Shown here: piece after piece, positions 8,501 through 27,861 of the stretch
Numbering within the stretch: the stretch's first letter is position 1
Layout of the letters: every line of letters begins with the position of its first letter
Assembly: GCA_029258885.1 (NCBI GenBank)
Contig: JAPDJW010000002.1
Coordinates: 64,001 to 128,000, forward strand
Direction of reading: 5' to 3'
DNA: 64,000 nt
Origin: Thermoproteota archaeon
GTDB taxonomy: Archaea > Thermoproteota > Thermoprotei > Thermofilales > B9-G17
The notes under the pieces: model-generated
What the model saw: only the letters and a program-made list of their open reading frames with translations
Told to the model about the DNA's origin: nothing
Databases searched by the model: none
Translations under genes and position numbers: made by a program

Positions 8501-9568
8501 CTAGAATTTTACATATATTACGGCCTTATCGGTCTCTATATCCTCTAAGTAACAGCCCCAACCTCCAACAGAGAAACGTCTTCCATCATCTGTCTCGATT
8601 ATCAAGCTATACTTTAAACCATTCTCAGAAATTAATACATCTTTTATTTCACCAGTAATATCCACATGCCTCTTATTAACCACATACCTGCCTACTATTC
8701 TGGCCTTTACATTTACCCCCATACTTAGGAGCTCCTTCACGTCTTCAACCAACCTCCAGAAATGTACATACCTTAAAGGCCTTGAGAATATGCTTTTTTT
8801 ATCAAATGCCTTAAGCTCTGATATATTCCATAGTGCTAGATGATAGAAGTCATTTAATAGCCTGAGGAGATTTTCATCTTCTATTATTAGGGCATAATCC
8901 ATGTTTACCTTAGATTCTGGACTCAGCTCTGGCGGTATAAAGTAGCTGAAACCCTTCTTCCTATCAATTAGTAACACTGTTACTGTAACTATTTTTCTAA
9001 CCTTAACTTTTGAGAAGGCTCTGCTTATGTTAACTAAATATTCAACTAGCTTCGGGTCGGTCTGATATATTACTAGCGATATGTTTACTCCTTTATTTGC
9101 AACTGCTACTATCTTATCCATAACCTTTGATAGAATATAATCGGTGGTTGCTATAGCTAAGCCGTAGGAAGCCTCATTAAATAGGCTACACATCCTTGAA
9201 ATAATGTTCCTTCTCCCCCTAACAGTCCACACAACCCCCGTCGCCTCAGGCTCTCCACTAACTCTTATCTCCTTAATCATTTCTAGAGTCTCCGCTAGCG
9301 TTGTTTCATACTGTTTAATTAGACTTTTTAAGCCTCTATTTGGATCTGTTATTCTATAGACTTTAGGCCTGCTTTCTTGGGATTCTATTAGACCCTTTTC
9401 CTCAAGACCCCTTAATATATCATAGATCTTAGATAATGGTATTCCCGCCTCCTTAGCTATTCTTGATGCCACAGCTGTGCCTAGCCTCGCTAACGCAATA
9501 TATGCTCTTGCTTCAACTTTCTTTAATCCTAGTTTAACCAAATTTTCCTCGATCTTCCTAGTGGTCAT
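8501..9568 (-). CDS. TrmB-family transcriptional regulator with C-terminal sugar-sensing domain
   Basis: N-terminal wHTH LVKLGLKKVEARAYIAL..IAKEAGIPLSKIYDILRGLEEKGLI; C-terminal SVGGWGCYLEDIE typical of full-length TrmB. Confidence 0.9.
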   Translation of the reverse strand: MTTRKIEENLVKLGLKKVEARAYIALARLGTAVASRIAKEAGIPLSKIYDILRGLEEKGLIESQESRPKVYRITDPNRGLKSLIKQYETTLAETLEMIKEIRVSGEPEATGVVWTVRGRRNIISRMCSLFNEASYGLAIATTDYILSKVMDKIVAVANKGVNISLVIYQTDPKLVEYLVNISRAFSKVKVRKIVTVTVLLIDRKKGFSYFIPPELSPESKVNMDYALIIEDENLLRLLNDFYHLALWNISELKAFDKKSIFSRPLRYVHFWRLVEDVKELLSMGVNVKARIVGRYVVNKRHVDITGEIKDVLISENGLKYSLIIETDDGRRFSVGGWGCYLEDIETDKAVIYVKF

Positions 9569-11489: not shown

Positions 11490-13484
11490 CTAGTACGGGA
11501 ATAGGAACTTGTATATTTGTCCTAATCCAAGCACGAAGACTGAGAATATGTATCCTAGGAATAGTCCTGTAGCTAATGGTACTCCGTAGTTCTCATATAC
11601 TTTTGCTCCACCGAACTTTAGTGTTATGTATTTGAACAGCCATGCTATGAAAGCTGAGAAAGCTCCTCCCCATGCTCCGCCGATAGTTCCGAAGAGTAGT
11701 CCTATGCCGCTTATTGGGAACCAGTAGTACCTTATCTTCAGATAGAATATTGCTCCAGATAGCGCTAGTCCTCCGAGGACATGTAGCCACCACGGCTCGT
11801 CTGCTGGATAAGGCGATATCAGTGAAGGATTCGTCCATCTATCGGGCCACCACCATCCATCGACGCTTGACGGTATCTTGCTGTATCCTATGGTGTACCA
11901 GGACCATACAACTAGTGGTATTGCAATAGCTATACTTACGGCAGCTGAGAAGAATAAGTTCTTGAATATTGTAGCTGACTTCATGCCGTGCTCCTCGCCT
12001 AACTTATACGCTAGTAGCGAGTAGTATGTTGGACCATAGCTTATCGAGCTAGCTGATGCACATATTAGACTGTGGGCCATTAATTGTACTGAATAGTAGC
12101 TTGTGTTGAATTTATCCAGTGTATATCCTCGGTAGAGTACGTGGTATGTTAGTGCCTGCAGTGTTCCCCACCATCCTCCGCTGAACGCTACTCCTGCCTC
12201 TGCTAGCTGTCGTGCCATGACAAGATTATGGATTATTACCGCTATGAAGAGCCAGCATGCTTCAACAATGTGTGCGCCACTTATAACCATTAGAACCACT
12301 AGTACTAGGAAGGAAGCTGTAAGTAGTGTGTAGCTGAAACTATATCCTACCTCTCCTTCCCTTAGCTCCCTAATTGGCGTGCTTTTGATAGCCTTCTTTA
12401 TGGTATTTAGGTACCATTTCCAGTTTAATAGTACTGGCCATATGAAGACTCCTATGAATAGTCCTACGCCTGCAAATGCGTGGATTTTCAGTGGATCCGT
12501 TCTGCCTATTAGGTCGTATCTAGCTATGCTGTCCGCTAGCGCCGGCATGTTCGGGTAATATCCGAGAGTGTATGCTATCTGTGGGATTAGGATGAGGAAT
12601 ATTAGCCATGAAATCCACGCCGTAAACAGTACATCCAAGGGCACTAGGTAGTAGAAGGCTACGGTAACGGGTGAAGTTTCTATCGAAAACACGCCAGCAT
12701 AGTTCTGTTTGATAACAGGAGAGAATACTACTAGATCCAGCATTGTAGGCATACCGTATCTGAATGGAGGCCTATTCCATCCATAGATGTTTGGAAAGCC
12801 CGGCACTAGTAGATGTAGGATCCACGGCAGGTAGATGAGGAAGCCTACAGCTATTCCTGTGTGGAATAGCCAGGAAGCCGATTTCTTCTCTCCCGTTGTG
12901 TAGCTTACTACTGTATCTATTACCACCGCGTGGGGATATGCTAGCATCTCTATCTTATTCCATCTCTCCTTAACTATGCTTGCGAGCGCTATTGCCATGG
13001 TAACCGATGATAGGAGGAATATATACCAGAAGGCTATGGGTTTAATCCATTCACTCCATGGTACTGGAGCTCCGCCAGCTAGTGCTGGCTGTAGGACTGA
13101 CGGAGATGGAGCCCAGATGCTGGGCAGATACTCATTGTATATTGCTGGCTGGAGCAGCCTAGCGCCCATGAACTGGTTCATGAAAACCCATGGCATGAAG
13201 TAGCTTGAGAATGCGAATGGAATTATTATGAGTGTGGCTAAGAAGAACAGTGCCTCCCCGCTAACGTATTCTCTTAGCCATGGACCAAGCAGTACAAGTA
13301 GATAGAATATTCCCAATATCAGTAGTGTTCCTTCCACCGGTCCTAGGTGGAAGCCGAAGAGAAGGCCTATGTAGGCCACCTGATAGGACATTAGTATAGT
13401 TATCGCAATTATTATCAGTAGAGTATATATATACCATTTGGCTCTAGCCACGCTTCTCACCCCTAACCCTCCTCCTGTAGACAT
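11490..13484 (-). CDS. Polytopic membrane protein, DUF6785/DUF6784-like (OPT-related putative transporter); probable start GTG at 13451
   Basis: Many TM helices; W..PI..W, ERWNKIEMLAYP, RYYWFPISGIG motifs; GGTGA RBS before the GTG at 13451. Confidence 0.7.
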   Translation of the reverse strand: MSTGGGLGVRSVARAKWYIYTLLIIIAITILMSYQVAYIGLLFGFHLGPVEGTLLILGIFYLLVLLGPWLREYVSGEALFFLATLIIIPFAFSSYFMPWVFMNQFMGARLLQPAIYNEYLPSIWAPSPSVLQPALAGGAPVPWSEWIKPIAFWYIFLLSSVTMAIALASIVKERWNKIEMLAYPHAVVIDTVVSYTTGEKKSASWLFHTGIAVGFLIYLPWILHLLVPGFPNIYGWNRPPFRYGMPTMLDLVVFSPVIKQNYAGVFSIETSPVTVAFYYLVPLDVLFTAWISWLIFLILIPQIAYTLGYYPNMPALADSIARYDLIGRTDPLKIHAFAGVGLFIGVFIWPVLLNWKWYLNTIKKAIKSTPIRELREGEVGYSFSYTLLTASFLVLVVLMVISGAHIVEACWLFIAVIIHNLVMARQLAEAGVAFSGGWWGTLQALTYHVLYRGYTLDKFNTSYYSVQLMAHSLICASASSISYGPTYYSLLAYKLGEEHGMKSATIFKNLFFSAAVSIAIAIPLVVWSWYTIGYSKIPSSVDGWWWPDRWTNPSLISPYPADEPWWLHVLGGLALSGAIFYLKIRYYWFPISGIGLLFGTIGGAWGGAFSAFIAWLFKYITLKFGGAKVYENYGVPLATGLFLGYIFSVFVLGLGQIYKFLFPY

Positions 13485-15006
13485 GGCCCCTACCTGAAAT
13501 ATATCCTAGGATAAAGAGAATTATCGACACTATTACTAGGAGTATTCTAGTTCTATAGTTGACCATTTCGACTACCTCTATCTTTGACTTAAGCTCAGTT
13601 ATTCTTCTAGTAAGGTTCTCGATCTGTAGTTCCAGCTCGGTAATTGCCTTCTGAAGCTCGAATATCTCCTTCATCTGAGCCAGCTCACCCGGTAGTTCCT
13701 CTATTACCATGGCCTGCTCTATGCTTACAGTAGGCTCAGCTATGTAGTACTCCTTATATATTCTTTTAACGTGGTTCACCGGATCATCTGTTATGCTCTC
13801 ATCAAAGGGTATTAGTAACGATTTGAAGGGGAAGCTCATGGCTGTATAAACGTTATGTATGCCTTCATCGATAAACGACCAGGTAATCGCGTCTAAGCCT
13901 TCAAGAGTATACGTGAAGCCGAAACCTTTCTTCAAATCCTTATTGTATGCAACATACCATCCCTCCTTTATCTCAGAGACTGGCACTGATACGTCGGATG
14001 TTCTATCAAACTCTCCAGCTTCTCCGATAACAACCGTATAGTATTTTCCTCCCTTACCTACTCCGCTCCACTCCCTATTTGCTAGGTTTACATGAAGAAA
14101 AGTTCCTGGCTTAGCATTTTCTCCAGTTATATCAAGTATAGCATATATCCACGTATGATTTACGTATAGTATGTAAGTGAAAACAGCGTATATTTCCGTT
14201 AAATTATGATAACTAGATTCAAGCTTAAGTTTAATTATGCCCCTAACAGGCCCCTCTTTTATAAAAACTAGTTCTCCTGCTCCATCATATGCATTAGGAT
14301 TATTCTCTATCCAACCCGGATCGGCTGGACAGAAAAATCTGCTCCACTTCCACAGCAGGCTCATGAACTCCGAATCCTGCTTTATCACATCATAGCCAGT
14401 CTTAGTTAAGTTTATAGAGAATATAGAGCCGGACATCCACGCAGCCTTTACTGCTATAACGTATTCAACCAGTCCATTGGACATAGTGTAGGCTTCCTGC
14501 ATGAACTCTGGTGAACCTTCTTTTATGCTCTGTAAATATTCATATTCATCTATTCTCACAGCCAAGGGGTACGTAACCTCTGGCAACCCTGCGCCCTTTA
14601 ATGCTATGAAGATACTGTATTCATCAGTCTCACCACTAGCTATCCTACTTACAGTTAAAAACGCTAGCTCATCCTCCGGAGTAATACCTTCTTCATTATC
14701 TATATCATCTACTTGCGATGGAATTACCTTCTCGCCATGCAATACGGCTAGGGCTTTCCAGTCAACATCATCGGCAGAATCAAGCGTATTAGTACCAAAT
14801 ACATCAACATTCTCAGGTAGTGCTGCAGCTATATCTCTTATCCTAATGACTATAGGATAATTAACTGGAATATCAGTGCCTGGGGGAGCTCTAATCTTAA
14901 CTTTAATTAGATAATAAGTCGGTAAAGGTTGAGAAAGAACGTATGGGGAAGGTAGGAGGTAAAGGATAGCAACAAAAATGATAAAAAAATAAATAGGGTT
15001 TTTCAA
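13444..15006 (-). CDS. Secreted surface protein: DUF4861-like/supersandwich head, coiled-coil stalk, C-terminal TM
   Basis: Signal peptide; VIPSQVDDIDNEEGITPEDELAF; EGPVRGII; heptad stretch ITELELQIENLTRRITELKSKIE; TM plus basic tail. Confidence 0.7.
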   Translation of the reverse strand: MKNPIYFFIIFVAILYLLPSPYVLSQPLPTYYLIKVKIRAPPGTDIPVNYPIVIRIRDIAAALPENVDVFGTNTLDSADDVDWKALAVLHGEKVIPSQVDDIDNEEGITPEDELAFLTVSRIASGETDEYSIFIALKGAGLPEVTYPLAVRIDEYEYLQSIKEGSPEFMQEAYTMSNGLVEYVIAVKAAWMSGSIFSINLTKTGYDVIKQDSEFMSLLWKWSRFFCPADPGWIENNPNAYDGAGELVFIKEGPVRGIIKLKLESSYHNLTEIYAVFTYILYVNHTWIYAILDITGENAKPGTFLHVNLANREWSGVGKGGKYYTVVIGEAGEFDRTSDVSVPVSEIKEGWYVAYNKDLKKGFGFTYTLEGLDAITWSFIDEGIHNVYTAMSFPFKSLLIPFDESITDDPVNHVKRIYKEYYIAEPTVSIEQAMVIEELPGELAQMKEIFELQKAITELELQIENLTRRITELKSKIEVVEMVNYRTRILLVIVSIILFILGYISGRGHVYRRRVRGEKRG

Positions 15007-15022
15007 TTGTACCCACCTCTAC

Positions 15023-16570
15023 TTACTTCTTTTTCTTAGCTACTATAAATCCTATTATTAGACCTATTATTAATCCAACTATTAACATTACATACTGCAT
15101 CGACTGAGCCGTGCCTAGCTGTGATTTAAGTGAGTCTATTTCGGATTGAAGCGATGAAATCTGATCCTGTAAGCTTGATATCTGAGCATTTGCCTGATCA
15201 AGCTGTCCCTGAAGAGTCGAGATCTGTGCTTCTAAGGAGCTTATCTGCTCATTTAGACTACTTATAGTCTCCTCCTTCTCCTTAATCGCGCTTTCATACG
15301 CAGTTATTATATTGGCAGGTACTAGACCAGCTTTCTCCTCTCCAACAACCTTAATTGTTGGCTTGTTAATGCAAATTCTATAAATATTCGACATTAAAGC
15401 TAGGAAATCATCAGTTATAGTACTATCGAATAGTACTAACACTCTATAGAATGGTACTGGTATACCATCCTCAAAGTGTAGCACAAGCTCAGCTCCTGGA
15501 GATCCCCAGTCAAAGGTTAGTAGCTTTTCTGCTGGATAAAATATTACTCCAAATCCCTTACCCTCAGCCTTCTTATATACTGCAAACCAGTATTCGGTAA
15601 AGTTCTCAAGCCTTAGCCCTTTACCTTCCATTCTGGACAATTCTCCAGTTCCAGGTACGTAAACTGTGTCGTGTTCAATGCCCTGATCTCCCATATCGAC
15701 AAAGCTTGCTTTAACTGGTATTTTAGTGCCTGGTGTATAGCCTGGACCTGTTACTGTTAATTCTAATTCTATATATGACTGGCCCTTATATACTGCATAC
15801 TTCTTCACCGCATATGCTCCATCTACACTACCATGAGGCTCGGTTGACTTCAAAACAACCACAGCTCTAACAGGTCCCTCTGATATGTATAGCACGTTGA
15901 AATCTGGGTTTTTCTCAGCCCATCCGGGGTCTCCCTCAGCACAATACCTAGACCATCTCCATCCAACGTTATCCACACCCTCCCTGCCCTGCTTAACTAC
16001 ATCGTATCCAGAAGCCTTAATATATGCCGAAAATATAGTGCCAGCAATCCAGTCACTCTCATTAAGTATGATAGCTGAAATTAAATCATTTGAGAGAATT
16101 AATGCTGGACCTAATTCTTCAACGCCTTGATATGGACTTTCTATTGTTACAGTACATACTTTCTCAGCGGGTGGCGGAAGGGATTCACCTTCCCTTGCTA
16201 CAAGTATCTTATAGGTATCGCTACCTCCCGCAGGTATACCCGCGACCAGCTCAAAGACTATTTCATAGTCATTTACGCTCTCGCCTATTTTATCAAGCTG
16301 AGCTGGGACAACGTCATTCCCGTGAACTACATAAATGTTATCCCAACTATATGATCCTGTTAGCTGAGGAAGTATGTCTCCAACTTTTATAACCACTGGA
16401 GTGCCAGCAGGCATATCGGTAGTTGCAGTTACTTCAACAACTATATAGTATAGATCTGGAGATGCAGTTACGTTAAATGGTACTAATAATGTTGCTAGTA
16501 GAAGCAATCCGAGAATACATTTGAGGGGTTTATTCATATTTTTACCACCATCGATAGGTATAAATCTCAT
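15023..16570 (-). CDS. Paralog of 13444..15006 (secreted head, coiled-coil stalk, TM); start may be 16537
   Basis: VVPAQLD..EIVFE, W.WSRY, EGPVRAVV, KGFG shared with neighbour; heptads ISSLNEQISSLEAQISTLQGQL; GGTGG RBS before M12. Confidence 0.75.
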   Translation of the reverse strand: MRFIPIDGGKNMNKPLKCILGLLLLATLLVPFNVTASPDLYYIVVEVTATTDMPAGTPVVIKVGDILPQLTGSYSWDNIYVVHGNDVVPAQLDKIGESVNDYEIVFELVAGIPAGGSDTYKILVAREGESLPPPAEKVCTVTIESPYQGVEELGPALILSNDLISAIILNESDWIAGTIFSAYIKASGYDVVKQGREGVDNVGWRWSRYCAEGDPGWAEKNPDFNVLYISEGPVRAVVVLKSTEPHGSVDGAYAVKKYAVYKGQSYIELELTVTGPGYTPGTKIPVKASFVDMGDQGIEHDTVYVPGTGELSRMEGKGLRLENFTEYWFAVYKKAEGKGFGVIFYPAEKLLTFDWGSPGAELVLHFEDGIPVPFYRVLVLFDSTITDDFLALMSNIYRICINKPTIKVVGEEKAGLVPANIITAYESAIKEKEETISSLNEQISSLEAQISTLQGQLDQANAQISSLQDQISSLQSEIDSLKSQLGTAQSMQYVMLIVGLIIGLIIGFIVAKKKK

Positions 16571-16647: not shown

Positions 16648-16971
16648 GTGAATTATATGAAATCAACTTCTATTATTGTCCTAGTAATGTTGATTACAGT
16701 AATTTTCCTGACTCAGGCGGCGTTTCATGCTCTTCCTAATGGTGGATTAACAGCTAAACTTAATGAGCTTAAAAAAATTTACCAACAAAAGTTGGTTGAG
16801 TATGAACAGCTAAAGAAGCTACACGATGAATTATCTGAGAAGCTTAGCTCGTTAGAAGGAGAGCTATTCCTATTGAGAAATGGAATATTAGTTGCTGGAG
16901 GCATTCTCTTCATCGTCGGATTTATAGTAGGTATGTATCATGAGAAGAAGCGGCCTTCAGGCTCCCGTTAA
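16648..16971 (+). CDS. Small membrane protein: hydrophobic N-terminus, coiled coil, C-terminal TM; probable start ATG 16657
   Basis: Heptads LNELKKIYQQKLVEYEQLKKLHDELSEKLSSLE; TM ILVAGGILFIVGFIVG; the GTG at 16648 lies inside the AAAGGTGA RBS. Confidence 0.7.
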   Translation: MNYMKSTSIIVLVMLITVIFLTQAAFHALPNGGLTAKLNELKKIYQQKLVEYEQLKKLHDELSEKLSSLEGELFLLRNGILVAGGILFIVGFIVGMYHEKKRPSGSR

Positions 16972-18839
16972 TAGGGTAGGAGCCAGGCTGCTTTACCTAC
17001 TAGCTTTAGAACCATGACTAATGTACCTAGGATATTGTCTCCGAGGAGGAATCCCATTACGAGATAAGGTGCAGTTTTGCTCCATTTATCTCTTCCGAGT
17101 TTTCTAGCTATTAGCTTGCTTCCTATAAATGAACCTACGAATTGAGCTATGACGTATGTTGGTAGTTGAAGAATTCCAGATATTAATGCTATAGGTATGA
17201 AAGGCTTCTTTAGTATGAAATCGCATATAAGGTAAAGTACTCCGCCTGATATTATGCCTGATGTTATCCAATCTATTCTAAACATGTATCCTGTCCATAG
17301 CCACTTTTGGAATCGCCAGAAATCTAGCGCTTCAACAGGCCATCCTGTAATTGTGTATGGGTAGGCGTAGGATGGTATTGGAGCAACGTACCAGAATATG
17401 GATACGTATACAAAGCTCATTAGAAGACCCAGGAACGTTACTAGAATGTATGCTTTTATGTAATCGCTCATCCTACATTTAACTATCTCAGCCATTTTTA
17501 GATGCTGAGCTACACCTGAGCCTCCAGTATAGACTTGTATTGGAGCATACCAAGCATCTAGCCCCTTGTATCCGCTGAAGTATATTAGGAGTTCCTTCAA
17601 GTAAGGTATGTTTAGTGCAAGTGTTACTCCTGCAGCGTATGTTTGAAGTAGTGTCGCTATAAACGACCAGCCGATGACTAGTAGCAATAGAATCCATACG
17701 GGGAATGACGGTACTAGAATATATACTAGAGTAACCGTGCCTATAGCTGATATTAGGAACATGGCTAAGTATACCTCTCCCCTAGCTTCACCCCTCTCCT
17801 TTAACCTCGAGATTATCGAGAACGTTTTAATGACATCCCTATAGTGGACTACCATTGGAACTAGTGCCACCGATACTCCCAGACCTATTGCAAGGCTTAG
17901 CCAGAAGTATAGCTGTGATTTACTGTATATCCACATCCACCCGTATCCAGGCTTCCACGTAGCCTCAGCAGGCCACATGTTACGGGATGTTATTATATTA
18001 TTTCCAACGATGTAGGTAGCTATCATTCCTATGAGCTGTATGAAACATACGTCAAGCGGAAGTATGAAACCAATTACATATAGGTCAAAATCCGACGGTA
18101 CTACTAGCAGTCCGCCCGGTGCATTTAGATCCATTAGATAGGTTAAGTCTATCGGTTGCTTAGTTGGTATCTCCACCCCCAATATAAATGGTAGGAATAC
18201 TGCTAGAAAATTGTACAGTATTCCTGCAAGCATAGATAGGAAAAATATTCTAAGCTCCTCCACCCTCTCTTCAGCTATCGTCTCTATTATCTTTGCTTGA
18301 GCTGAAGCCCATGGAAACTCTAGCCTAGCTACCACGCCGTAGAGGTTATAGGAGAATATCCCCAGCGATATATTTGCTATTACCGAGAAAACCACCGATA
18401 GTATTAGGATTATTATTGGCAGGGTCCATGCAGGATCTAGGAATGTTCTATTATGAAGTATTCTTATTGCATCCGATCCGATTGGCGAGAAGAAAAAGGG
18501 GACTTGCCCAGATATGTCGAACATTATGGCTATCTCGCTGTTAGCATAGTATAGCTTTTTGATTAGGTCTAGGAAGTACCATGCTCCTCCCCAGAGTCCA
18601 ATCCATTCAAACGCCATTATTATGAATATCTCCTGCCTTGTTAGTTTCGCCCCCAATAACGCTGCTAACTCGTTCCAGAGCAGTATTATCATCCAGACGG
18701 ATAACGGCAATCCTGAGATTCCGGAGACAAGGTAGTAGTAGATTACGGCTGGCTGTATGACTATGATTGCAAAGATTAACGCTAGGAAAGATCTCCAGGT
18801 TAAGCCGGATTTATATTCAACATCAATTCTACTGCTCAA
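16968..18839 (-). CDS. OPT/YSL-like oligopeptide-transporter-related membrane protein
   Basis: N-terminal SGLTWRSFLALIFA, RLEFPWA, many TM helices; 11-nt overlap with the permease gene. Confidence 0.7.
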   Translation of the reverse strand: MSSRIDVEYKSGLTWRSFLALIFAIIVIQPAVIYYYLVSGISGLPLSVWMIILLWNELAALLGAKLTRQEIFIIMAFEWIGLWGGAWYFLDLIKKLYYANSEIAIMFDISGQVPFFFSPIGSDAIRILHNRTFLDPAWTLPIIILILSVVFSVIANISLGIFSYNLYGVVARLEFPWASAQAKIIETIAEERVEELRIFFLSMLAGILYNFLAVFLPFILGVEIPTKQPIDLTYLMDLNAPGGLLVVPSDFDLYVIGFILPLDVCFIQLIGMIATYIVGNNIITSRNMWPAEATWKPGYGWMWIYSKSQLYFWLSLAIGLGVSVALVPMVVHYRDVIKTFSIISRLKERGEARGEVYLAMFLISAIGTVTLVYILVPSFPVWILLLLVIGWSFIATLLQTYAAGVTLALNIPYLKELLIYFSGYKGLDAWYAPIQVYTGGSGVAQHLKMAEIVKCRMSDYIKAYILVTFLGLLMSFVYVSIFWYVAPIPSYAYPYTITGWPVEALDFWRFQKWLWTGYMFRIDWITSGIISGGVLYLICDFILKKPFIPIALISGILQLPTYVIAQFVGSFIGSKLIARKLGRDKWSKTAPYLVMGFLLGDNILGTLVMVLKLVGKAAWLLPY

Positions 18840-21800
18840 ACCTCTTCACACCTCTTCTCACATATTCATCTTTAAGATTTGGCTTAAGGGATCTCCAGAT
18901 TAGGAACTGCTTCCTAATTTCCCGGAAGAATGCAGAGTTAGAAGATATCCAGGGCAAATCCGGCCCACTTTCCCTAACGACAAGTGCCTCAAAGACGTAT
19001 ACCTTACCGATCCTTCTTGCAATTAGGTTGAAGTCCTGAATTATCCCCTGATCAAAGGGTGCCAGCCTCATCCTTACCGACATTATCTTTACATCCTCCT
19101 TAGCAGTTGATCTAACGCTGTAGTTAAAGCCTCCATCTATGTAGAATAGGCCTACCCTCTCTATTGAGTGAGCTTCCAAGTACTCCCTAATGAACTCGAA
19201 GACCCCACACGCCTCCCTCTCGGTGGATCTGAATGGCAGCGGCAGTGACCACATGTTCCCAGTTGGTTTCGTCGTTATCTTCCATTTCCTTTCAAGTGAT
19301 GGCGTAACCAATTTCGCAGCCTTTACAGCTGGATAAACGGTTGATAAGAGGGAGAAAGCCATTGCAACGCTGGTAATTATGAGTATAGCTAGTGACGCAT
19401 AATTTGGATAAAAGCCGGCCGGATAGAGTCCCAGTTGCCATAGTGTCCATGAACCTATTACACCTGCAATATATCCTAATATTCCTCCAATGGCTGCATG
19501 AATCAATGATTCAGCTAGGAATAAACCCAAGACATGTAGTGGCGCTAGACCTATGGCGCTATATATCTTTATCTCCCTAACCCTCTCATAGACAGAGCCG
19601 AGCATAGTAATGAGAATTGTAAATGACGCTATAGTTAGTGGAACTACTATTCCTTGGGCTCCACCTATACTGTAGTATATTCTAGGCGATATCCTGTATA
19701 TTCTACCCATTATTTCGTCAGGCTTATCCTTATATCCCACGTACGCGTCCACCATTAACCGTTTGGAGAAAGCTACAGCTATATCGAGGATATCTTCACG
19801 TGAAAGCTGTCCCTTTAATTCTAGGCTTATGGCGTTTGGCTCCTGATAGAACATAATTTGAGCAAGCTTATATGGTATTATTAACACTTCATCGCCCGTT
19901 AATCTTCTCCCCATAGCTCCCTCGGATAATTGCCGTGGATCAATAGGCGTTATTGGCATGCCGTCTAGGTCTGTTACTCCCTCAGTTCCCGTCCATAGAA
20001 TATCGCCACTATATATCGCCACAATCTTTAGATGTACACCCCATATTTCAATCGTGGATCCCAGATCCACTGCTTTGCCAGTATATTTCTGTATCAATTC
20101 GGCGGTCTTTTCGCTTATTGCACATACGAATACTTGATCCTCGGTAAACCATTCTCCTCTTTCAATAATTTTATCTATGCCTAAGGCTCTTCCACCCTCG
20201 GGCGATACCGCTAATAGGGCTTTTATTGGTACGCTAGGCGATACATTCCATAAATATAGTATTTGGACGCTCTTCGGGTATATCCACGTTCTAACGCCTA
20301 CTGCAAATGAATCCCTGTAGTTTATCGAGAACTCATATACGAACTCATACGGTATTGGCCTCAATATCATCCATGGTGCTCTTTCAACAAGTATTCCTGT
20401 ATAGGGCGTAATGCCGTCGGAGCTTTTAATTGATAATGTTACCGCCGAGGAGATGGAAGTGAATGCCGTGAGCGAGAACATAGTTATTACGACTGAAGTT
20501 ATGGTTAGGAATGTTCTAAGCCTCCTTTTACGCATATTCTGTACGCCTATCGAGAGAGCTGACATGAATGCCCCTAGCCTCTCGATTTCGGCGTAGTGCT
20601 TTCCTATGAGTATTTCCCTTATCCTCTTCATGTGCGAGTACGTCTCCCCTATAGATAATACGAGCAATATTAACAGGAATATGGTTAAGGCTGTAGCTAC
20701 CGCTAGTATGAAAACGTTAGTTGCAACGTGTACGCCGGGATGGAATATTGCCAATATGAAAGCTGTAATTATGTAGATTAGGATGAAGTATATCAGCCGT
20801 TTAACCCCGTATGACATGAAGATTAGCCTCTCCATACCCATCGAGAACGGTATGGCTAGGAACATGAAGAACAGTATTGATAGTATTATCTCGTTTATCT
20901 GATCCATGGCGGATGAATACGTAGCCCTAGAGAAAGCCCAGAGGGGTATCGATAAAGTATAAACCTTCAGCATATCCTCTTTCTTCAGCGCCTCATCTAC
21001 GAGCTCCCTATATTTAACCATAAGGCCGTAGTATTCGAAGAGTCTAGCTGTCACTGCTCCCTTCTCTACTAGAATCTTTGCCCTAGATATTGCTATGTGG
21101 TAGAGGTCTCGTGAGAAGTTTATGGGTGAAAGAATTATACATTCTCCCCTCTTCAGCGTGTAGCCGTATCCTTGAGGATGCTTATCGGATGAGTTTATCA
21201 GAATTATAAGCGGATATACTTCATCCGTCCTCACTATTACCTCTGAGGGCATATTTGGCTCTATGAAAGCCATGATATCCTGTATCGCTGTTGGTATGGA
21301 TTTCGCCGTAATCTGCGGCTGTGTAAACAGCACATCCCTATGGATCAGAGGCGTATGGGAGAAGAAGTTTAGGACTTCTATGCTCCTAATGTTTATCTGA
21401 AGAGATTGCGGGTTTATGGGTTGTAGTATAGCTATTGATGCCGCCTCAAATACTGGGACTATCTTATACGCATTCGCCACCGTGAGGCTTATCTCCCTCG
21501 ATAGGCCGTAGACTCCCGTATCTGTAGCGCATATTATGGCATTATATTCCTCGTTAAAGGTATACGCTTGAACGTCAACTGTAGAGAACGGCTTTAAGCC
21601 CTTTAGCGTGAATATTCCGTTTTCATCAGGTATTGCTACTATGGTGAATCCGTTTGCCGCCCACTTGGGGTTCGGTGGATTATTATAAGCCCTGATAAAG
21701 AACACTGTATTAGGAAGACTTACATTATCATACCATGCAGTTGTAATGTTGTATTTTGCAAGTTGTATTGTTAATGTTACGTAGCCCCAGTCACTATATA

Positions 21801-23244
21801 ACTCCGCTGGATTTAGTACATAGGGTATCTCCATGTTAACGTATTCGTATAGCGCTATCCAGAGGTACTTTGCTTGAGGCTCCACGTTTTCCCACTTAAT
21901 TCTCTCATATGTATCCAGTATTGTACATTGAACAATCCTTAGAGCATTAGTTGTTACGAAGCTTAATCCTCCTCCAAAGCAGGCTGAAGTAAACGGCTCC
22001 GACTCCAAATATAGAAGTGGGGGATCCATCGGCAATGTAAGCTTTATCCAGGGCGGATAGGAATTTAATACCATATCAACTACGTGAAAATCCTCATTGA
22101 AGATGGATTTAGCTTCGTCAAGCCATGAACCGAAGAAGGTATCCATAATCCACGTATACTTCTGGTTTATTAGGGAGTCAGGGCTTACATAGCCGTATCC
22201 AAGCCCAAACACGTAGAGTCCAAGCACATCGCTATCGCTAGCCAAGTCTATGCTTAGAAAGCCCTTTATGAATACACCTAGCTTCCTGAAGTATCTACTC
22301 ACGAACTCCCTAGATCCCCATAGACCTTGATAGTGACCAGACAGGGCAACAAGCCAGACTGTTCTCTTAGGTCTATACTTGTTGAGTACTCTTGCATACT
22401 CCAGTAGGAAAGCTATTCCCAGTGCGTCGGTTGCACCGGGAGCTTTACCTAGCACATGGGAGAATGAATCGTAGTGTGCGGCTAGTACAATTATTTCACC
22501 CCTTTTAACCGGATCACTTCCCTTTATTACAGCTATTATATTGGGTACGGCTATCTTCCTCCATACGACTCTAACATTAACTCTAATTCTAACTTCGTTA
22601 CCTGTGGAAAGAAGGTTTTTCAGCATTTCTCCACTACTTGAATTAATTAGGAGACGTGGGAAGGCTACGGGTATGCTCAGGCTCTTAAGGAAGCCCTCCA
22701 TGTAGCTCGTAGTTTTAGGCTCAATGAATATTACTCCCTTTGCACCAAGCATCAGATATACCTTCCATTCCCACCCGGTATTGAACTTCGTTAATACAAA
22801 CTTGCCTCTAACGCTGGTATTTCCCAGCTCATCCAGCCTTTTAATATAGACTATACCGTCGCCCTCGGCTGGGCTTGTGTACGACGATGGATTTACATGG
22901 TTTGGATACAGCGGGTAGGCTATTATATTATATATGTGTCCGCCGTGAAGTACTTCAATGTAGGAATACTCTACTATGGGAACCGTTATGTTATAGTAAT
23001 CAAGCCTTACGTCAGCACCGTACTTTCTAAAGATTTTCTTAATATACTCCGCTGCCTTAAAGAATCCGCTATAGCCTGTCATTCTGGTGTTAAGTGATGA
23101 AAGATACTTTACGTGTTCTTTAATTTTATTAAGATTTAGGAGACTCGCCACGTCTTCAAGAGAAGCCTCGGCGTATACATGGTTTAGGCTATAGAGACTT
23201 GCAGCCAATATTGTTAGGATAAATAATGCCAAAACTTTCCTCAA
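18829..23244 (-). CDS. Fusion: signal peptide, PA/M28 peptidase-like ectodomain, FtsX/MacB-type ABC permease domains
   Basis: VLAAHYDS..APGATD (M28 fold); NMRKRRLRTFLTITSV (MacB TM1); GSVYERVREIKIYSAIGL..LFLAES (FtsX signature). Confidence 0.85.
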   Translation of the reverse strand: MRKVLALFILTILAASLYSLNHVYAEASLEDVASLLNLNKIKEHVKYLSSLNTRMTGYSGFFKAAEYIKKIFRKYGADVRLDYYNITVPIVEYSYIEVLHGGHIYNIIAYPLYPNHVNPSSYTSPAEGDGIVYIKRLDELGNTSVRGKFVLTKFNTGWEWKVYLMLGAKGVIFIEPKTTSYMEGFLKSLSIPVAFPRLLINSSSGEMLKNLLSTGNEVRIRVNVRVVWRKIAVPNIIAVIKGSDPVKRGEIIVLAAHYDSFSHVLGKAPGATDALGIAFLLEYARVLNKYRPKRTVWLVALSGHYQGLWGSREFVSRYFRKLGVFIKGFLSIDLASDSDVLGLYVFGLGYGYVSPDSLINQKYTWIMDTFFGSWLDEAKSIFNEDFHVVDMVLNSYPPWIKLTLPMDPPLLYLESEPFTSACFGGGLSFVTTNALRIVQCTILDTYERIKWENVEPQAKYLWIALYEYVNMEIPYVLNPAELYSDWGYVTLTIQLAKYNITTAWYDNVSLPNTVFFIRAYNNPPNPKWAANGFTIVAIPDENGIFTLKGLKPFSTVDVQAYTFNEEYNAIICATDTGVYGLSREISLTVANAYKIVPVFEAASIAILQPINPQSLQINIRSIEVLNFFSHTPLIHRDVLFTQPQITAKSIPTAIQDIMAFIEPNMPSEVIVRTDEVYPLIILINSSDKHPQGYGYTLKRGECIILSPINFSRDLYHIAISRAKILVEKGAVTARLFEYYGLMVKYRELVDEALKKEDMLKVYTLSIPLWAFSRATYSSAMDQINEIILSILFFMFLAIPFSMGMERLIFMSYGVKRLIYFILIYIITAFILAIFHPGVHVATNVFILAVATALTIFLLILLVLSIGETYSHMKRIREILIGKHYAEIERLGAFMSALSIGVQNMRKRRLRTFLTITSVVITMFSLTAFTSISSAVTLSIKSSDGITPYTGILVERAPWMILRPIPYEFVYEFSINYRDSFAVGVRTWIYPKSVQILYLWNVSPSVPIKALLAVSPEGGRALGIDKIIERGEWFTEDQVFVCAISEKTAELIQKYTGKAVDLGSTIEIWGVHLKIVAIYSGDILWTGTEGVTDLDGMPITPIDPRQLSEGAMGRRLTGDEVLIIPYKLAQIMFYQEPNAISLELKGQLSREDILDIAVAFSKRLMVDAYVGYKDKPDEIMGRIYRISPRIYYSIGGAQGIVVPLTIASFTILITMLGSVYERVREIKIYSAIGLAPLHVLGLFLAESLIHAAIGGILGYIAGVIGSWTLWQLGLYPAGFYPNYASLAILIITSVAMAFSLLSTVYPAVKAAKLVTPSLERKWKITTKPTGNMWSLPLPFRSTEREACGVFEFIREYLEAHSIERVGLFYIDGGFNYSVRSTAKEDVKIMSVRMRLAPFDQGIIQDFNLIARRIGKVYVFEALVVRESGPDLPWISSNSAFFREIRKQFLIWRSLKPNLKDEYVRRGVKRFEQ

Positions 23245-25838
23245 GGTTTATCATCTCTTTTTAATATTTTAATCATTTCTATGAATAAAATAGTAATTGG
23301 TATAATTATTAGAGCCCCCAAGGTAATAAGGGGCATAAAACTAGGTCTCTCAGGTTGTTTTACTTCCTCCTTAACAGTATAGAGGATGATTGAGATTATG
23401 CCGTCTTCCGACTTAATGTATACGAGGTAGTAGCCTCTCGTCAAGGGCTTATATTTAACCTCATTGACCCCGGCTGTTATATTGATTTTAATTGAGCTAA
23501 TGAAGCCAGTTACTACCTCAACTATCTTTAACTCCGCCTTCCCAATATTGGTGTTTGATGACACCTTGATGGCTATGGTATTGTTTTTAGGCTGAAAGGC
23601 TATCTTGACATCGCTTCTCAGTCGAAACATCTTGCTCGGGATAACCAAGTATAGAATCCCTGTGGAGTTTGATACCTTAACTTCGAAGCCCTCGGCTAAG
23701 TCTACGTCCTTAACCTGGGACTTCCTAAAGACGTCGTAAACTGTATACTCCGTGTCTTTCAAATCGCTTAGATTCAGAAAGACGCTGTACTCCTTATTTG
23801 CTAGGTTGGTTAGTGCCTTAATTATGTATATTTCGCCGTCCCTTAACGTTCCTACCTGAAGCCCAGCGAACTCCATAATGCCATATGGTGGAAGCCTTAC
23901 GGTATTGTAGTGGTAGATGCGGTTCAATGTAGCGAGAACTATCGGCTCACCCGCTCCATAGATTTCCTGCCCTATAATTCCGTTCTTCCTAAATCCAAAC
24001 CTTAAATCTTCAATAGGTATCGTATAGTTCCTTACAATGACGCCTATATTCGGCTTCTTCTCAATAGTCTCGGGTGGCAGGAATTCAGGCAACGTATACT
24101 TTGCCACAGTATTTGAGTATTTAAAGAACTCATTAAGTAGGCTCTTTAAGTAGTCGGGCAGTTTATCTCCCACAAGCAAATAGTATTCTTTAAGCCACAG
24201 AACACTCTCATACAGCTCCTTAGCAGCTATGTAATCAACAATTCCACAGCATGGAAGTATTCCAAAGAATGTAATCCATCTATCTTCAAGCTGCCATATT
24301 GAAGCCCTCCACATGAGGTTTGCAATCATATAGTAGCTCAATTTAAGATACCTCTCTTTGCCCGTGTAGAGATATGCCTTAGCGGCAGCCACTGCAGACA
24401 TAGCTGTGATATGTGCTTCGTAGAATACCTCTAATGGAAAATCCATTAACCTATCTAAGGCTTTTAACGCCTCATTTAGGTAGGTGCTATTTCCACTTAA
24501 CTCATATGCTAGAAACATTACGTAGGAGTAAGCTCCAGCCACGTCCAGTTCCTGACCACCTGGTATCGGTTCCAGGGTATACCTGTTAAAGAACACCGGA
24601 AAAGTATAGTTTATTTTCCTTGCAAACTCTATTAAATTATCTATGCTATTGAAGAACGTTAAGTACGCATTCTGCGATCCCATAAATGCTAACTTTGCAA
24701 GCTTAGCCATGTGTCCAACTATGTACCATGAATCCTCCTTAACGCCGGGTGGATACGAGTTTGAAATCATACCCTTTGAATAGAATAGAGGTATGAGTCT
24801 GTCTAAATGGTCGTCAATCCATGATACATTACCTAAATAGGATTCATAGAGCCTTATAGCATAGCAGAGCTCTAAAACTGTTATTAGTTCTGAAGCCACA
24901 CGTGGATCTTCTACATAAGCTCTTGGAAAAATTTCCCCTCTCAAATTTACCCAACACTCGTTTTTACCTAAATCCAGCAACGCCTTCTTAGCGTAGTTAT
25001 CCCAGTTAATCTCCTCATACTTAGGCTTCTTAATTCTCTCATAGAGATTAGCGAGAGATCTTAGGTAAAAGCCTGAGACCTCAAGCTTATTATTGAAGGT
25101 TAGGTTTGGACGAATTAAAACATGATACTTATGTATAGGGATCTCACTCTCAGCTAGCTGTACGCTCTTTTCAGCAACGCACTTAAAGCCGAAGCAGCAG
25201 AAAGATTTCATGTCCCTTTTGCCCTTGTATGCTACGGTATTTTTCCATATGTGATAAGCTCCCTGCTTGAGTAGAATTTTGGAATAATATATATCCTCCA
25301 GATAAGCTACTCCCAGGGATAAGGGGGGTATATATATGCATATGTAGGGCGTCCCCATGCCAAGCTGCGGGAATATTACATTATATTCAAGCTCACCCTC
25401 ACATATTACATAGGCGTCTGGATAGATGTTCAGCTTTACACTCTTAGAAGACTTACTACTAACATAAATTGCTGAATCTATCAGGAGACTATCATTAACC
25501 AATGTAATATTAATTATCACATGATATATTACTTCGTCGACCTCGGATGATAAGTCTATTTTAATGCTGTTATTAAAACAATTATAACGGAAATTCCGTA
25601 TATGTTCCTCGCTCAAAACCGGCCTATTGTATCCTGTGGTTATACCATTTAAAACTACAACGTAATCCTCATTCCCATACCTAATAACTATACCTTTATT
25701 CTCCTTAAAATCAAATTCAATATGATAATTTCCAAGAGTTAGCTTGTTGGCAGAGATCATGAAATCCACCAAGCTAAATATTAGGAGGAGGATTATTGAA
25801 AAAGTAATTATCTCATTAAATATATCAAGCAATTCCAT
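23241..25838 (-). CDS. Secreted, membrane-anchored six-hairpin (alpha/alpha)6 glycosidase-like protein
   Basis: N- and C-terminal hydrophobic helices; helical repeats DSWY, ELDVAGAYSYVMFLAYELSGNSTYLNEA, YLYTGKERYL; QEIYGAG. Confidence 0.6.
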   Translation of the reverse strand: MELLDIFNEIITFSIILLLIFSLVDFMISANKLTLGNYHIEFDFKENKGIVIRYGNEDYVVVLNGITTGYNRPVLSEEHIRNFRYNCFNNSIKIDLSSEVDEVIYHVIINITLVNDSLLIDSAIYVSSKSSKSVKLNIYPDAYVICEGELEYNVIFPQLGMGTPYICIYIPPLSLGVAYLEDIYYSKILLKQGAYHIWKNTVAYKGKRDMKSFCCFGFKCVAEKSVQLAESEIPIHKYHVLIRPNLTFNNKLEVSGFYLRSLANLYERIKKPKYEEINWDNYAKKALLDLGKNECWVNLRGEIFPRAYVEDPRVASELITVLELCYAIRLYESYLGNVSWIDDHLDRLIPLFYSKGMISNSYPPGVKEDSWYIVGHMAKLAKLAFMGSQNAYLTFFNSIDNLIEFARKINYTFPVFFNRYTLEPIPGGQELDVAGAYSYVMFLAYELSGNSTYLNEALKALDRLMDFPLEVFYEAHITAMSAVAAAKAYLYTGKERYLKLSYYMIANLMWRASIWQLEDRWITFFGILPCCGIVDYIAAKELYESVLWLKEYYLLVGDKLPDYLKSLLNEFFKYSNTVAKYTLPEFLPPETIEKKPNIGVIVRNYTIPIEDLRFGFRKNGIIGQEIYGAGEPIVLATLNRIYHYNTVRLPPYGIMEFAGLQVGTLRDGEIYIIKALTNLANKEYSVFLNLSDLKDTEYTVYDVFRKSQVKDVDLAEGFEVKVSNSTGILYLVIPSKMFRLRSDVKIAFQPKNNTIAIKVSSNTNIGKAELKIVEVVTGFISSIKINITAGVNEVKYKPLTRGYYLVYIKSEDGIISIILYTVKEEVKQPERPSFMPLITLGALIIIPITILFIEMIKILKRDDKP

Positions 25839-25842
25839 ACAC

Positions 25843-26733
25843 CTAGAAGAAGTCTGAGATCTCTGCTGTAGCTACGCATACTACTGTATCAGCTGCACCA
25901 TAGTAGACGTATACTTTCTCATCCTTCACTATAGCTCCACAGGTGAATGTTACGTTAGGTACGGCACCTACTTTTTCAAATTCCTCCTCTGGTTCAAGTA
26001 TTGGATCCTTACACCTGTATATTACTCTCCTCGGGTTCCTTAAGTCTAGTATTGCGTAGCCGAGCCTGTAGACATAGTTTTCATCTACTCCATGATATAT
26101 GAAAAGCCAGCCATCCTTCGTTTTAATGGGGGGTGCTCCTGCCCCTACTTTGAGGCTATCCCAAGAATTCTTGCGTGGCATCATAATAATGTTATTGTTG
26201 ATCCATGTCCTCAAGTTCCTGGAGTATGCTATCCAGATATGTGGATGTATCCGGTGGTACATAACGTACATGCCATTATACTTCTCTGGAAGTATTACCG
26301 CATCCTTATTGACTACTTGTGGAAAAGCCATTATCCTCCTTCCCCATCTCCACCTCCTGTTTAGGAAGTCGTCTAGCCTTATCGATGTTATGCCTATCTG
26401 AGGTATTTTACCATCATATGCGGTATAAGTCATGAATATGGTTGATCCAATTCTTGTTAAACGTGGATCCTCGCACCCCCTAGCCTCAGTGCTTAGCTTT
26501 GGCGTAAATATGGGCCTAGGAAGCCTCTCCTTTATAGTGAAGCCATCCTCTGAACACGCATATCCTAATCGTGAAACATTATCCCTTCCCATAGCCCTAT
26601 AAACTATGTGCACTAGACCTCCATCATAGATTGCACCAGCGTTGAAAACCATCTTAGATTCCCAGGAATGATTAGGCACTGGCTTTAAAATTGGATTACC
26701 GGGATATCTCTTTAACTCCATAGAATGTAACAC
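25843..26733 (-). CDS. GH130-family glycosidase/beta-mannoside phosphorylase (cytoplasmic)
   Basis: NPIL.P, VFNAGA, GCEDPRL, NKDAVILPEK, KVGAGAPPIKT..GWL.IYHGV, VPNVTFTCG; no signal peptide. Confidence 0.9.
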   Translation of the reverse strand: MLHSMELKRYPGNPILKPVPNHSWESKMVFNAGAIYDGGLVHIVYRAMGRDNVSRLGYACSEDGFTIKERLPRPIFTPKLSTEARGCEDPRLTRIGSTIFMTYTAYDGKIPQIGITSIRLDDFLNRRWRWGRRIMAFPQVVNKDAVILPEKYNGMYVMYHRIHPHIWIAYSRNLRTWINNNIIMMPRKNSWDSLKVGAGAPPIKTKDGWLFIYHGVDENYVYRLGYAILDLRNPRRVIYRCKDPILEPEEEFEKVGAVPNVTFTCGAIVKDEKVYVYYGAADTVVCVATAEISDFF

Positions 26734-27153: not shown

Positions 27154-27861
27154 TATGCAATATGCATCACCTCACATACGAGCCAGCATAATCTAGCAAA
27201 CTCATCCAGCGGCTTTAAGCCTAAAGGCGGAAAACCTAGGCTTAAATAAGTTCTAACGTAATTATAGAAGGCAAGCCAGGCGCTAATCCAGGAAATAGCA
27301 CTAGTAAAACGCTTAAGGCTTAAACGCGGGAAACAAACGTCAAAGCCCCATCCTTCAACATTCAATGAGGCGTTCAGCATAGCTCCTCATACCGCCTGAA
27401 AGCACTACGTGCCTAAGCCTAGCCCAACACGCTGCAGAGGGATACCAGGTAGCGCCATCCATAACGACTATCCTGACGCCGTGTCTAAGACTAAGCCTCC
27501 TTAGAAAGCTGTATGCAGTCCATACGTTGCGTACTGGAGTTATCTGGAAGGCTAGGAACGCCCTATTATAGGGGTCTACTGCAATCCAGAACCAGGCTTT
27601 CCGCCGTCCAAGCCCAATACACGTTTCATCAACTACGGCTATTCTCCTGCTAGCTTTCGGTGTAAGTAGCTTCAGGCTTAGGCTTCCGAATCTATGTATC
27701 CATTTTCTAACTGCTTCCCTGCTCCTATCTATTCCAGCTGTCTTTAGTGTTCGCTCTACTTGCCTTAGGCTTAGTCCTGAGAGATAAAGATATATTGCGT
27801 AGAGCATTATCCATAATGGGGTCCGTAGTCTCCTAAAGAGCTTATGTTGCTTGTTGCCCAT
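27153..27861 (-). pseudogene. IS6/IS240-type DDE transposase, frameshifted near 27360
   Basis: HTH LSGLSLRQV..SREAVRKWIHR, AVVDET, WIAVD, VVMDGA.WY, YAERLIE; C-terminus (GFDVCFP..WLAFYNYVR) continues in another frame. Confidence 0.85.

Follow-up and report, generated by a model that had tools for sequence, protein, structure and literature searches.

A giant archaeal FtsX protein with an M28-fold head, paired OPT-like partners and a candidate ABC motor encoded in trans

Results

A giant FtsX-type protein in a sugar locus

The window analysed here is a 64,000-nucleotide stretch of the genome of a Thermoproteota archaeon of the order Thermofilales (contig JAPDJW010000002.1, positions 64,001 to 128,000; host genome 2.1 Mb, 99.9% complete). 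It contains an uninterrupted open reading frame of 1471 codons (18829-23244, minus strand) whose product, called the giant below, joins an M28-peptidase-like head to a permease unit of the MacB/FtsX type. The giant has 711 homologous clusters at 50% identity (E<=1e-30) and is therefore a real gene. It stands in a co-oriented run that reads GH130 phosphorylase, an 865-residue protein, the giant, an OPT-like polytopic protein (partner 1, whose start overlaps the end of the giant by 11 bp), two SlaB-like proteins, a second polytopic protein (partner 2), a 640-residue protein and a TrmB-type regulator (Table 1). The TrmB-type regulator identifies the host as archaeal, and its nearest relatives in public data are metagenome-assembled genomes of the Thermoprotei/Thermoproteales. 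A preliminary description made from the sequence alone had read the giant as an FtsX/MacB permease with a nicastrin-like pseudo-peptidase ectodomain and no ATPase in its locus. Homology, predicted structure and gene order place it in a large, undescribed system of the type VII ATP-binding cassette (ABC) kind.

Architecture and fold of the giant

Pfam recognised the Peptidase_M28 domain (PF04389) at residues 235-338 of the giant (E 1.7e-14, covering the first half of the model only), MacB_PCD at 911-1080 (24.8 bits, just below the 27-bit cut-off) and FtsX (PF02687) at 1201-1311 (E 3.1e-11, above cut-off). Two AlphaFold2 models built on a 53-sequence family alignment were obtained, one of residues 1-780 with a predicted local distance difference test (pLDDT) score of 92.5 and a predicted template modelling (pTM) score of 0.90, the other of residues 775-1471 with a pLDDT of 86.9. 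The modelled head has the fold of the Bacillus subtilis aminopeptidase BSAP (6HC7; VIA Z 29.4) and of the Aeromonas aminopeptidase (AAP; 2ANP; VIA Z 28.5, root mean square deviation 2.4 Å over 264 residues), and Foldseek matched it to 2EK8 (E 3e-23) and then to GCPII and the transferrin receptor. For the C-terminal half, Foldseek returned MacB (5GKO, 5LJ7), 5XU1 (Spr0694-0695), LolCDE, HrtBA, YtrEF, YbbAP and BceAB. The periplasmic core domain within this half matched in fold the MacB periplasmic domains (3FTJ, 5LJ8) and whole MacB (5GKO), and the family profile matched MacB with an E-value of 3e-19.

The coupling-helix motif ER-x-REI-x-x-x-S-x-x-GL-x-P is retained in the family (E1220, R1221, E1224, G1232 and P1235, each conserved in 84-99%), and the elbow helix is also strongly conserved, as expected if the giants still dock a nucleotide-binding domain (NBD). 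Pfam found no match to the cytosolic tail (1317-1471), in which W1321, W1332, P1396, G1427, W1432, R1444 and W1450 are near-invariant. A hidden Markov model (HMM) of the tail recovered from the host genome eight M28-headed giants and one weak match only, and by this search the complete tail domain is confined to M28 giants. The bundle of three transmembrane (TM) helices at residues 776-885 was considered as a degenerate second FtsX unit and rejected at the sensitivity of hhalign, which gave it a probability of 1% against the FtsX unit. The giant is therefore counted as having one FtsX unit, not two.

Each giant forms a triad with two OPT-like partners

The host genome encodes eight full-length giant paralogs (1471-1520 residues) and exactly 16 members of one polytopic partner family, two of which adjoin each giant. 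One partner of every pair is a DUF6785/DUF6784 protein, and all seven DUF6785 matches in the genome adjoin a giant. The Pfam OPT model (PF03169) exceeded its gathering score in 5 of the 16 partners, with a best E-value of 4.3e-16 over model positions 104-621 of 623. The two partners in the window match DUF6785/6784 only, or nothing, in Pfam, and belong to the 16-member family by both clustering and HMM. A profile of the partner family had no match among PDB sequences at E<=10, so that the OPT assignment rests on PF03169.

The triad recurred in other genomes. These foreign loci were collected with a single M28-motif pattern derived from a 12-sequence alignment, and the 53 obtained are a biased sample. 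Where the giant was at least 1200 residues long, at least one partner lay within 3 kb in 43 of 45 loci, and two partners were present in 17 of the 20 loci with long flanks. The loci of this set belong to Bathyarchaeia, Thermoprotei, Thermofilaceae, Brockarchaeota and one metagenome-assembled genome (MAG) each from 'Thaumarchaeota', Asgard archaea and Verrucomicrobiota. The earlier suggestion that the permease works with the OPT-like proteins gains support from this pairing, both in the host genome (16 partners for eight giants) and in the foreign loci.

The sugar genes accompanying the eight host triads differ from locus to locus, comprising GH130 with TrmB, GalK/GalT/GalE with PfkB (Leloir), DUF6259/GHL6, AnmK with GHL10, GH3, and GH57 with a maltose-forming amylase. 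Glycoside hydrolases, phosphorylases or sugar kinases are encoded at no fewer than six of these loci. The triad itself is constant over all eight, and the stalked proteins and candidate hydrolases vary. Different sugar genes at each triad are what one would expect if the triads were uptake modules, each specific for its own substrate, within loci for glycan utilisation.

A candidate motor is encoded in trans

No ATPase was found at the giant locus, in agreement with the preliminary description; the nearest ABC_tran domain lies 17.7 kb away in an amino-acid ABC system. The host genome has five short FtsX genes (220-393 residues), each with an ABC ATPase 62-88 bp away, and 14 long FtsX proteins (957-1520 residues), none of which has an ATPase within about 5 kb. 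An ATPase in cis was likewise absent from 40 of the 45 foreign loci. Two other candidates were set aside: the ABC ATPase at C4:109347, near the giant paralog on C4, belongs to an ABC-2 type pair and is not cognate, and a 580-residue ABC protein in locus L029 is of a different type.

Judged from co-occurrence and synteny, the cognate motor is most likely a set of three proteins acting in trans. Its permease, mini-FtsX (C2:377013-377675), has 220 residues, four TM helices and about 20 extracellular residues between TM1 and TM2. The mini-FtsX gene is followed by that of a 240-residue MacB-type ATPase, ATPase A, the pair occupying C2:376287-377675 (locus L061:4288-5676). ATPase B, also of the MacB/LolD type and 73% identical to ATPase A, is encoded at C2:342683-343423 (locus L062:4684-5424) with no permease neighbour, between the housekeeping genes for THUMP, aIF-1A and NMD3. 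Other families of the phylum show the same split, with mini-FtsX beside one ATPase and the second ATPase at a different site. An FtsX permease lacking an ectodomain, like mini-FtsX, is unusual in itself.

Orthologs of mini-FtsX and of both ATPases (the latter with 57-75% identity) adjoin the triad in two Thermoproteati isolates (L036, L039), an Asgard MAG (L050) and two complete genomes of another family (G084, G212). In the Verrucomicrobiota MAG (L048), seven overlapping or abutting genes encode, in order, a DUF6785/6784 protein, a giant, an OPT-like protein, an FtsX protein, an ABC ATPase, a PqqD-like protein and a second ABC ATPase. The preliminary description had proposed that homologous loci be searched for an ATPase, as loci that always carry one would point to a simple loss or relocation here; most foreign loci lacked one in cis, and MacB-type ATPases stand beside the triad in L036, L039, L048, L050, G084 and G212. 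Its proposal that the ATPase is encoded elsewhere in the genome agrees with the candidate set, which accompanies the giant and adjoins the triad in several distant lineages. Borrowing an ATPase and acting with the OPT-like proteins had been offered as alternatives; they are not mutually exclusive, and both have evidence from gene content and order.

Between mini-FtsX and the ATPases, two of these loci encode a Cys-rich protein of about 150 residues (C-x-C ... C-P-N-P-D-C; L036:18466-18942 and L039:4303-4752, minus strand). An unlinked homolog, 47-53% identical, is present in the host genome (C3:132123-132527), and the equivalent slot in L048 is that of the PqqD-like protein.

Six of the long FtsX proteins of the host genome (957-1351 residues; Table 1) have no M28 head, no OPT-like partners and no nearby ATPase, and one of them begins with a CarboxypepD_reg domain. 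Their weak resemblance to the giants in the stalk and N-terminal TM module suggests that heads are swappable.

Giants and motor co-occur across the phylum

The distribution of giants and motor was surveyed in 201 genomes of the phylum with at least 90% completeness, related genomes among these not being independent, using thresholds of E<=1e-100 for orthologs of ATPases A and B and E<=1e-25 for mini-FtsX. Giants were present in 32 genomes, all 32 of which had A/B orthologs, usually in two copies, and no giant was present in any sampled genome without A/B orthologs at this threshold. Mini-FtsX was detected in 29 of the 32, and divergent copies stand beside the ATPases in G084 and G212. Within the order, giant and mini-FtsX occurred together in 22 genomes and were both absent from 14; four genomes, all incomplete MAGs, had the giant only and one had mini-FtsX only. 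We regard this co-occurrence as strong circumstantial evidence, not proof, that giant and motor belong together.

The head is an M28-fold domain with a probably remodelled pocket

Active-site positions were mapped onto AAP by HMMER alignment to 1AMP/2ANP and followed through an alignment of 154 full-length family members, comprising the homologs from an exhaustive search and the host paralogs. As the preliminary description had noted, the M28 motifs are partly lost. H257-Y-D259 and APGAT-D273 are kept, as is D333 in 'SIDLAS', at the positions of AAP His97, Asp99, Asp117 and Asp179. The general base of active M28 enzymes, Glu151, is replaced by H304, and of the five zinc ligands the equivalents of His97, Asp117 and Asp179 remain, Glu152 having become Y305 and His256 having become C440 (C440-T-I-L-D-T against H-T-x-x-D-T). 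These changes run through the family. Position 259 is Asp in all members, 273 is Glu in 57% and Asp in 39% (together 96%), 304 is His in 84% and Glu in none, 305 is Trp, Tyr or His, and 333 is Asp in 79%; position 257 is His in 49% and Tyr in 41%. Position 440 varies (Gly, Asn, Lys, Arg and others), with His in 2 of the 154. The canonical di-zinc set is complete in no member, and the ligands for the second metal are gone in more than 97%. C440 was considered as a substitute metal ligand and ruled out, the position being variable and Gln in the nearest ortholog (P0003, 52% identical).

By this alignment the head is, throughout the family, not a canonical M28 peptidase. The conservation of the pocket indicates that it is under selection and not decaying, and the pocket has probably been remodelled for binding. 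H257, D273 and D333 correspond to the AAP triad His97/Asp117/Asp179, which binds one of the two zincs of that enzyme, and 45 of the 154 members keep these residues together with H304, as the giant does. In addition, the best-matching AAP entry, 2ANP, is an E151H variant whose PDB title calls it 'functional'. The pocket may thus hold a one-metal site or support new chemistry. Of the earlier view of the head as a pseudo-peptidase module for binding or sensing, the departure from canonical M28 chemistry and the fit of a conserved pocket to binding stood; that the head is catalytically dead is less certain, given the residues that remain.

The proposed likeness to nicastrin in particular was not supported. 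The string 'DS.S....APGA' on which it was based is the general M28 motif H-x-D...APGA-D, shared by 2EK8 and AAP. Among the matches listed in profile searches, the closest relatives were active aminopeptidases with a PA domain (E 6e-35 for 2EK8, and 9e-28), followed by the transferrin receptor (2e-14), nicalin (2e-12) and GCPII (1e-8 to 1e-10), so that the active enzymes are closer than nicalin. Nicastrin was not among the matches listed in the sequence and fold searches, which marks it as not the closest relative and is weaker than an exclusion. While the analogy to an inactive M28-fold receptor is fair, a specific kinship to nicastrin is not supported by these comparisons.

Features and neighbouring genes

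The features of the giant and its locus are collected in Table 1. The 865-residue protein encoded upstream of the giant had no match in Pfam or NCBIfam; translationally coupled to the giant and just downstream of GH130, it may be a glycan-active enzyme. The two paralogous stalked surface proteins between the OPT-like genes (13444-16570, minus strand; 515 and 520 residues) each combine a head weakly similar to DUF4861, a coiled coil like that of the S-layer stalk SlaB and an anchor at the C terminus, and are adjoined by a divergent gene for a 107-residue protein (16648-16971, plus strand). Between the DUF6785 gene and TrmB lies the gene for the 640-residue protein (9565-11487, minus strand), whose similarity to the GH127 catalytic domain and to DUF6288 is no more than faint. 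A 168-residue fragment with weak matches to IS66/IS240 transposases (27355-27861, minus strand) lies immediately upstream of the locus at its GH130 end.

Table 1 Features of the giant, its locus and further long FtsX genes of the host genome (window coordinates unless a contig handle precedes them)
Feature	Position	Strand	Basis
Hydrophobic helix at the N terminus (residues 1-22), a signal peptide or TM1	23179..23244	-	Sequence; AlphaFold2 helix 2-18
Head of M28 fold carrying a PA insertion (residues 30-475; PA about 110-230)	21820..23157	-	AlphaFold2, fold and profile matches
H257-Y258-D259 (AAP His97/Asp99 positions)	22468..22476	-	Codons checked
D273 (bridging Asp117 position)	22426..22428	-	Alignment, codons checked
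H304-Y305 at Glu151/Glu152 positions	22330..22335	-	Alignment to 1AMP/2ANP; codons checked
D333 (Asp179 ligand position)	22246..22248	-	Alignment; codons checked
C440 at ligand His256 position; motif x-T-P-x-D-T	21925..21927	-	Family alignment
Two beta-sandwich domains (residues 489-705)	21130..21780	-	AlphaFold2 secondary structure, pLDDT >90
Three-helix stalk (707-779) leading to 3-TM bundle (about 780-866)	20647..21126	-	AlphaFold2
MacB/FtsX unit, opening with a cytosolic elbow helix (881-910) before TM5, the periplasmic core domain (933-1190) and TM6-8	19297..20604	-	Pfam, Foldseek, profiles
Cytosolic C-terminal alpha/beta domain (1317-1471)	18832..19296	-	AlphaFold2
Partner 1, 623-residue OPT-like polytopic protein	16968..18839	-	Clusters with 16-member partner family
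Partner 2, 664-residue DUF6785/DUF6784 protein	11490..13484	-	Pfam E 6e-28
865-residue protein upstream of giant	23241..25838	-	4-bp overlap with giant
GH130 beta-1,4-mannooligosaccharide phosphorylase	25843..26733	-	Pfam
TrmB-type sugar regulator, locus end	8501..9568	-	Pfam E 1e-44
Six long FtsX proteins without M28 head	C2:99812-102685, C4:94913-97876, C3:29551-32688, C14:9067-11991, C1:266426-269827, C2:159914-163969		

Discussion

We propose that the giant is the ectodomain-bearing, substrate-specific subunit of a type VII ABC machine (the MacB/FtsX or 'mechanotransmission' type) that works with a shared, unlinked motor in glycan uptake, a reading to which we assign a probability of about 0.55. 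The motor would consist of mini-FtsX and ATPases A and B. An engine of the type VII ABC class requires a pair of FtsX units and a pair of NBDs. As the candidate motor encodes two different ATPases and a single FtsX protein, one more FtsX unit is called for, and we propose that the giant provides it. Mini-FtsX would form a heterodimer with the one FtsX unit of any giant being expressed, giving an engine of two FtsX units and two NBDs. ATP would then drive a scissoring motion of the TM helices and, through it, movement of the periplasmic core domain, stalk and head. The remodelled M28/PA pocket (D259, D/E273, H304, D333) would capture the ligand, at this locus probably a beta-manno-oligosaccharide, and the head would then hand the oligosaccharide to the OPT-like permeases, or open them, for import. 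A single motor may serve every one of the eight M28 giants and perhaps also the six long FtsX proteins that lack an M28 head. The broader design of a modular uptake system, in which a single ABC engine drives many interchangeable modules of one giant and one OPT pair, is more tentative, and we would give it appreciably less than an even chance.

Several considerations weigh against this proposal. What ties the giant to the motor is co-occurrence in related, non-independent genomes, together with adjacency in a small number of lineages. In seven genomes of the survey the motor is present and an M28 giant is not, so the motor may have different partners, such as the six long FtsX proteins without an M28 head, or act by itself. 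OPT proteins are proton-driven importers of peptides or metal chelates, secondary carriers that do not need an ATPase. The pairing of giant and mini-FtsX is purely inferred, glycan binding by the head is putative, and the head, keeping a possible one-metal site, could be an enzyme.

Some of the same observations would suit a giant that is a passive receptor or scaffold, its FtsX unit uncoupled from any ATPase, that gates two proton-driven OPT-like importers, the candidate motor being an unrelated transporter with the same lineage distribution. Such a view accounts for the lack of an ATPase in cis at all eight host loci and most foreign ones, for the genomes with motor and no giant, and for partners of a secondary-carrier family, and the conserved cytosolic tail could replace NBD contacts. 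It sits poorly with the strong conservation of the ER-x-REI motif and elbow helix, with A/B ATPases in every giant genome and no giant in sampled genomes without them, with the tight L048 operon and adjacency in at least four other lineages, and with a motor whose two distinct ATPases and one FtsX gene call for a second FtsX unit; we consider it unlikely. A head that is still an enzyme would be compatible with the proposed uptake system; it would be a hydrolase, for instance a peptidase or deacylase, with a single metal or an otherwise remodelled site, and its substrate would be the polymer being imported. The invariant D259, the metal-site equivalents with H304 at the general-base position and the 'functional' E151H variant of AAP speak for it. 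Tyr at position 257 in about half of the family, the 21% of members without D333, the near-complete loss of second-metal ligands, a C440 that is not conserved even in the nearest ortholog, and a genomic context of sugar and not peptide catabolism together make it distinctly unlikely.

All characterised type VII ABC systems act outside the membrane and do not import, and the fold matches of the giant agree with such a role; with two SlaB-like stalked surface proteins and the anchored 865-residue protein encoded nearby, the giant might instead resemble FtsEX-EnvC/PcsB or LolCDE and activate or release surface glycoside hydrolases or stalked S-layer-type proteins. This seems very unlikely to us, as the invariant partners are OPT-fold permeases and not hydrolases, and it is the stalked proteins and hydrolases that change over the eight loci while the triad stays the same. 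Import of oligopeptides or glycopeptides by the triad, with the sugar genes coincidental, is highly improbable in view of the glycoside hydrolase, phosphorylase or sugar-kinase genes at most triads and TrmB at the window locus, even though the partners are OPT homologs, the head is of aminopeptidase ancestry and a C39-like peptidase adjoins one paralog.

The giant shares with type VII ABC systems (MacB, LolCDE, FtsEX, HrtBA, YtrEF, YbbAP, BceAB) a four-TM FtsX unit in which TM1 and TM2 flank the periplasmic core domain, together with the elbow helix and the ER-x-REI motif, and the candidate motor ATPases are of the MacB/LolD type. It differs from them in lacking an ATPase in cis, in its single FtsX unit and unrelated extra TM bundle, in a head of approximately 750 residues made of M28, PA and beta-sandwich domains, and in its unique cytosolic tail and obligate OPT-fold partners; moreover, its second FtsX unit would come from a separate small protein that has no ectodomain and would be common to many giants. 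To our knowledge, the type VII systems studied so far (MacB, Lol, FtsEX, Bce) push or pull outside the membrane, and we know of none that is joined to a secondary-transporter fold or shares a motor. ADOP proteins (NCBIfam TIGR03434), which we take to form large paralogous FtsX-domain families without adjacent ABC ATPase genes, are a precedent for orphan FtsX permeases in such families, but have two FtsX domains and neither M28 head nor OPT partners; the giant is not a member, scoring 23.3 bits against a cut-off of 622 and having one FtsX domain. Group II ECF transporters offer an analogy, in that an unlinked module of two ATPases and a small membrane protein (shared EcfAA'T) may serve many substrate modules. 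There is no homology, EcfT and S components standing against FtsX and OPT folds, and we infer the sharing in the case of the giants.

The partners match the OPT model of the OPT/Yellow-Stripe-like transporters nearly full length, but they are very divergent (DUF6785/6784), paired with an FtsX giant and found in glycan rather than peptide or metal contexts. With the PA-domain M28 aminopeptidases (Aneurinibacillus AM-1 2EK8, B. subtilis BSAP/YwaD 6HC6, P. aeruginosa PaAP) and AAP (1AMP), the head has in common the PA-inserted fold (Z 28-29) and the H-x-D, APGA-D and D179-type motifs; it is set apart by the Glu151 to His, Glu152 to Tyr and His256 to Cys changes and by a family without the di-zinc set. 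Transferrin receptor 1, nicalin and nicastrin are, like the head in our reading, membrane-protein modules in which an M28 fold (with or without PA) has been turned from catalysis to binding, yet they are remoter than the active aminopeptidases and have other partners, and, unlike in these inactive receptors, the old active-site pocket of the giant is conserved and not degenerated.

We found no paper on DUF6785 or on the architecture of the giant (FtsX with M28, FtsX with OPT). The family is large, with up to 14 matches per genome in addition to its many clusters, and is found in polysaccharide-degrading, mostly uncultured archaea, in which the giant loci look like counterparts of polysaccharide utilisation loci. 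Understanding the system would supply a clear example of an aminopeptidase fold remade as a conserved pocket with no peptidase role, and would broaden the known range of ABC designs. If the broader, modular design is correct, archaea such as Bathyarchaeia and Thermoprotei and some bacteria would have a form of ATP-driven oligosaccharide import unlike both binding-protein-dependent ABC importers and SusCD, and understanding it would explain how these archaea take up glycans.

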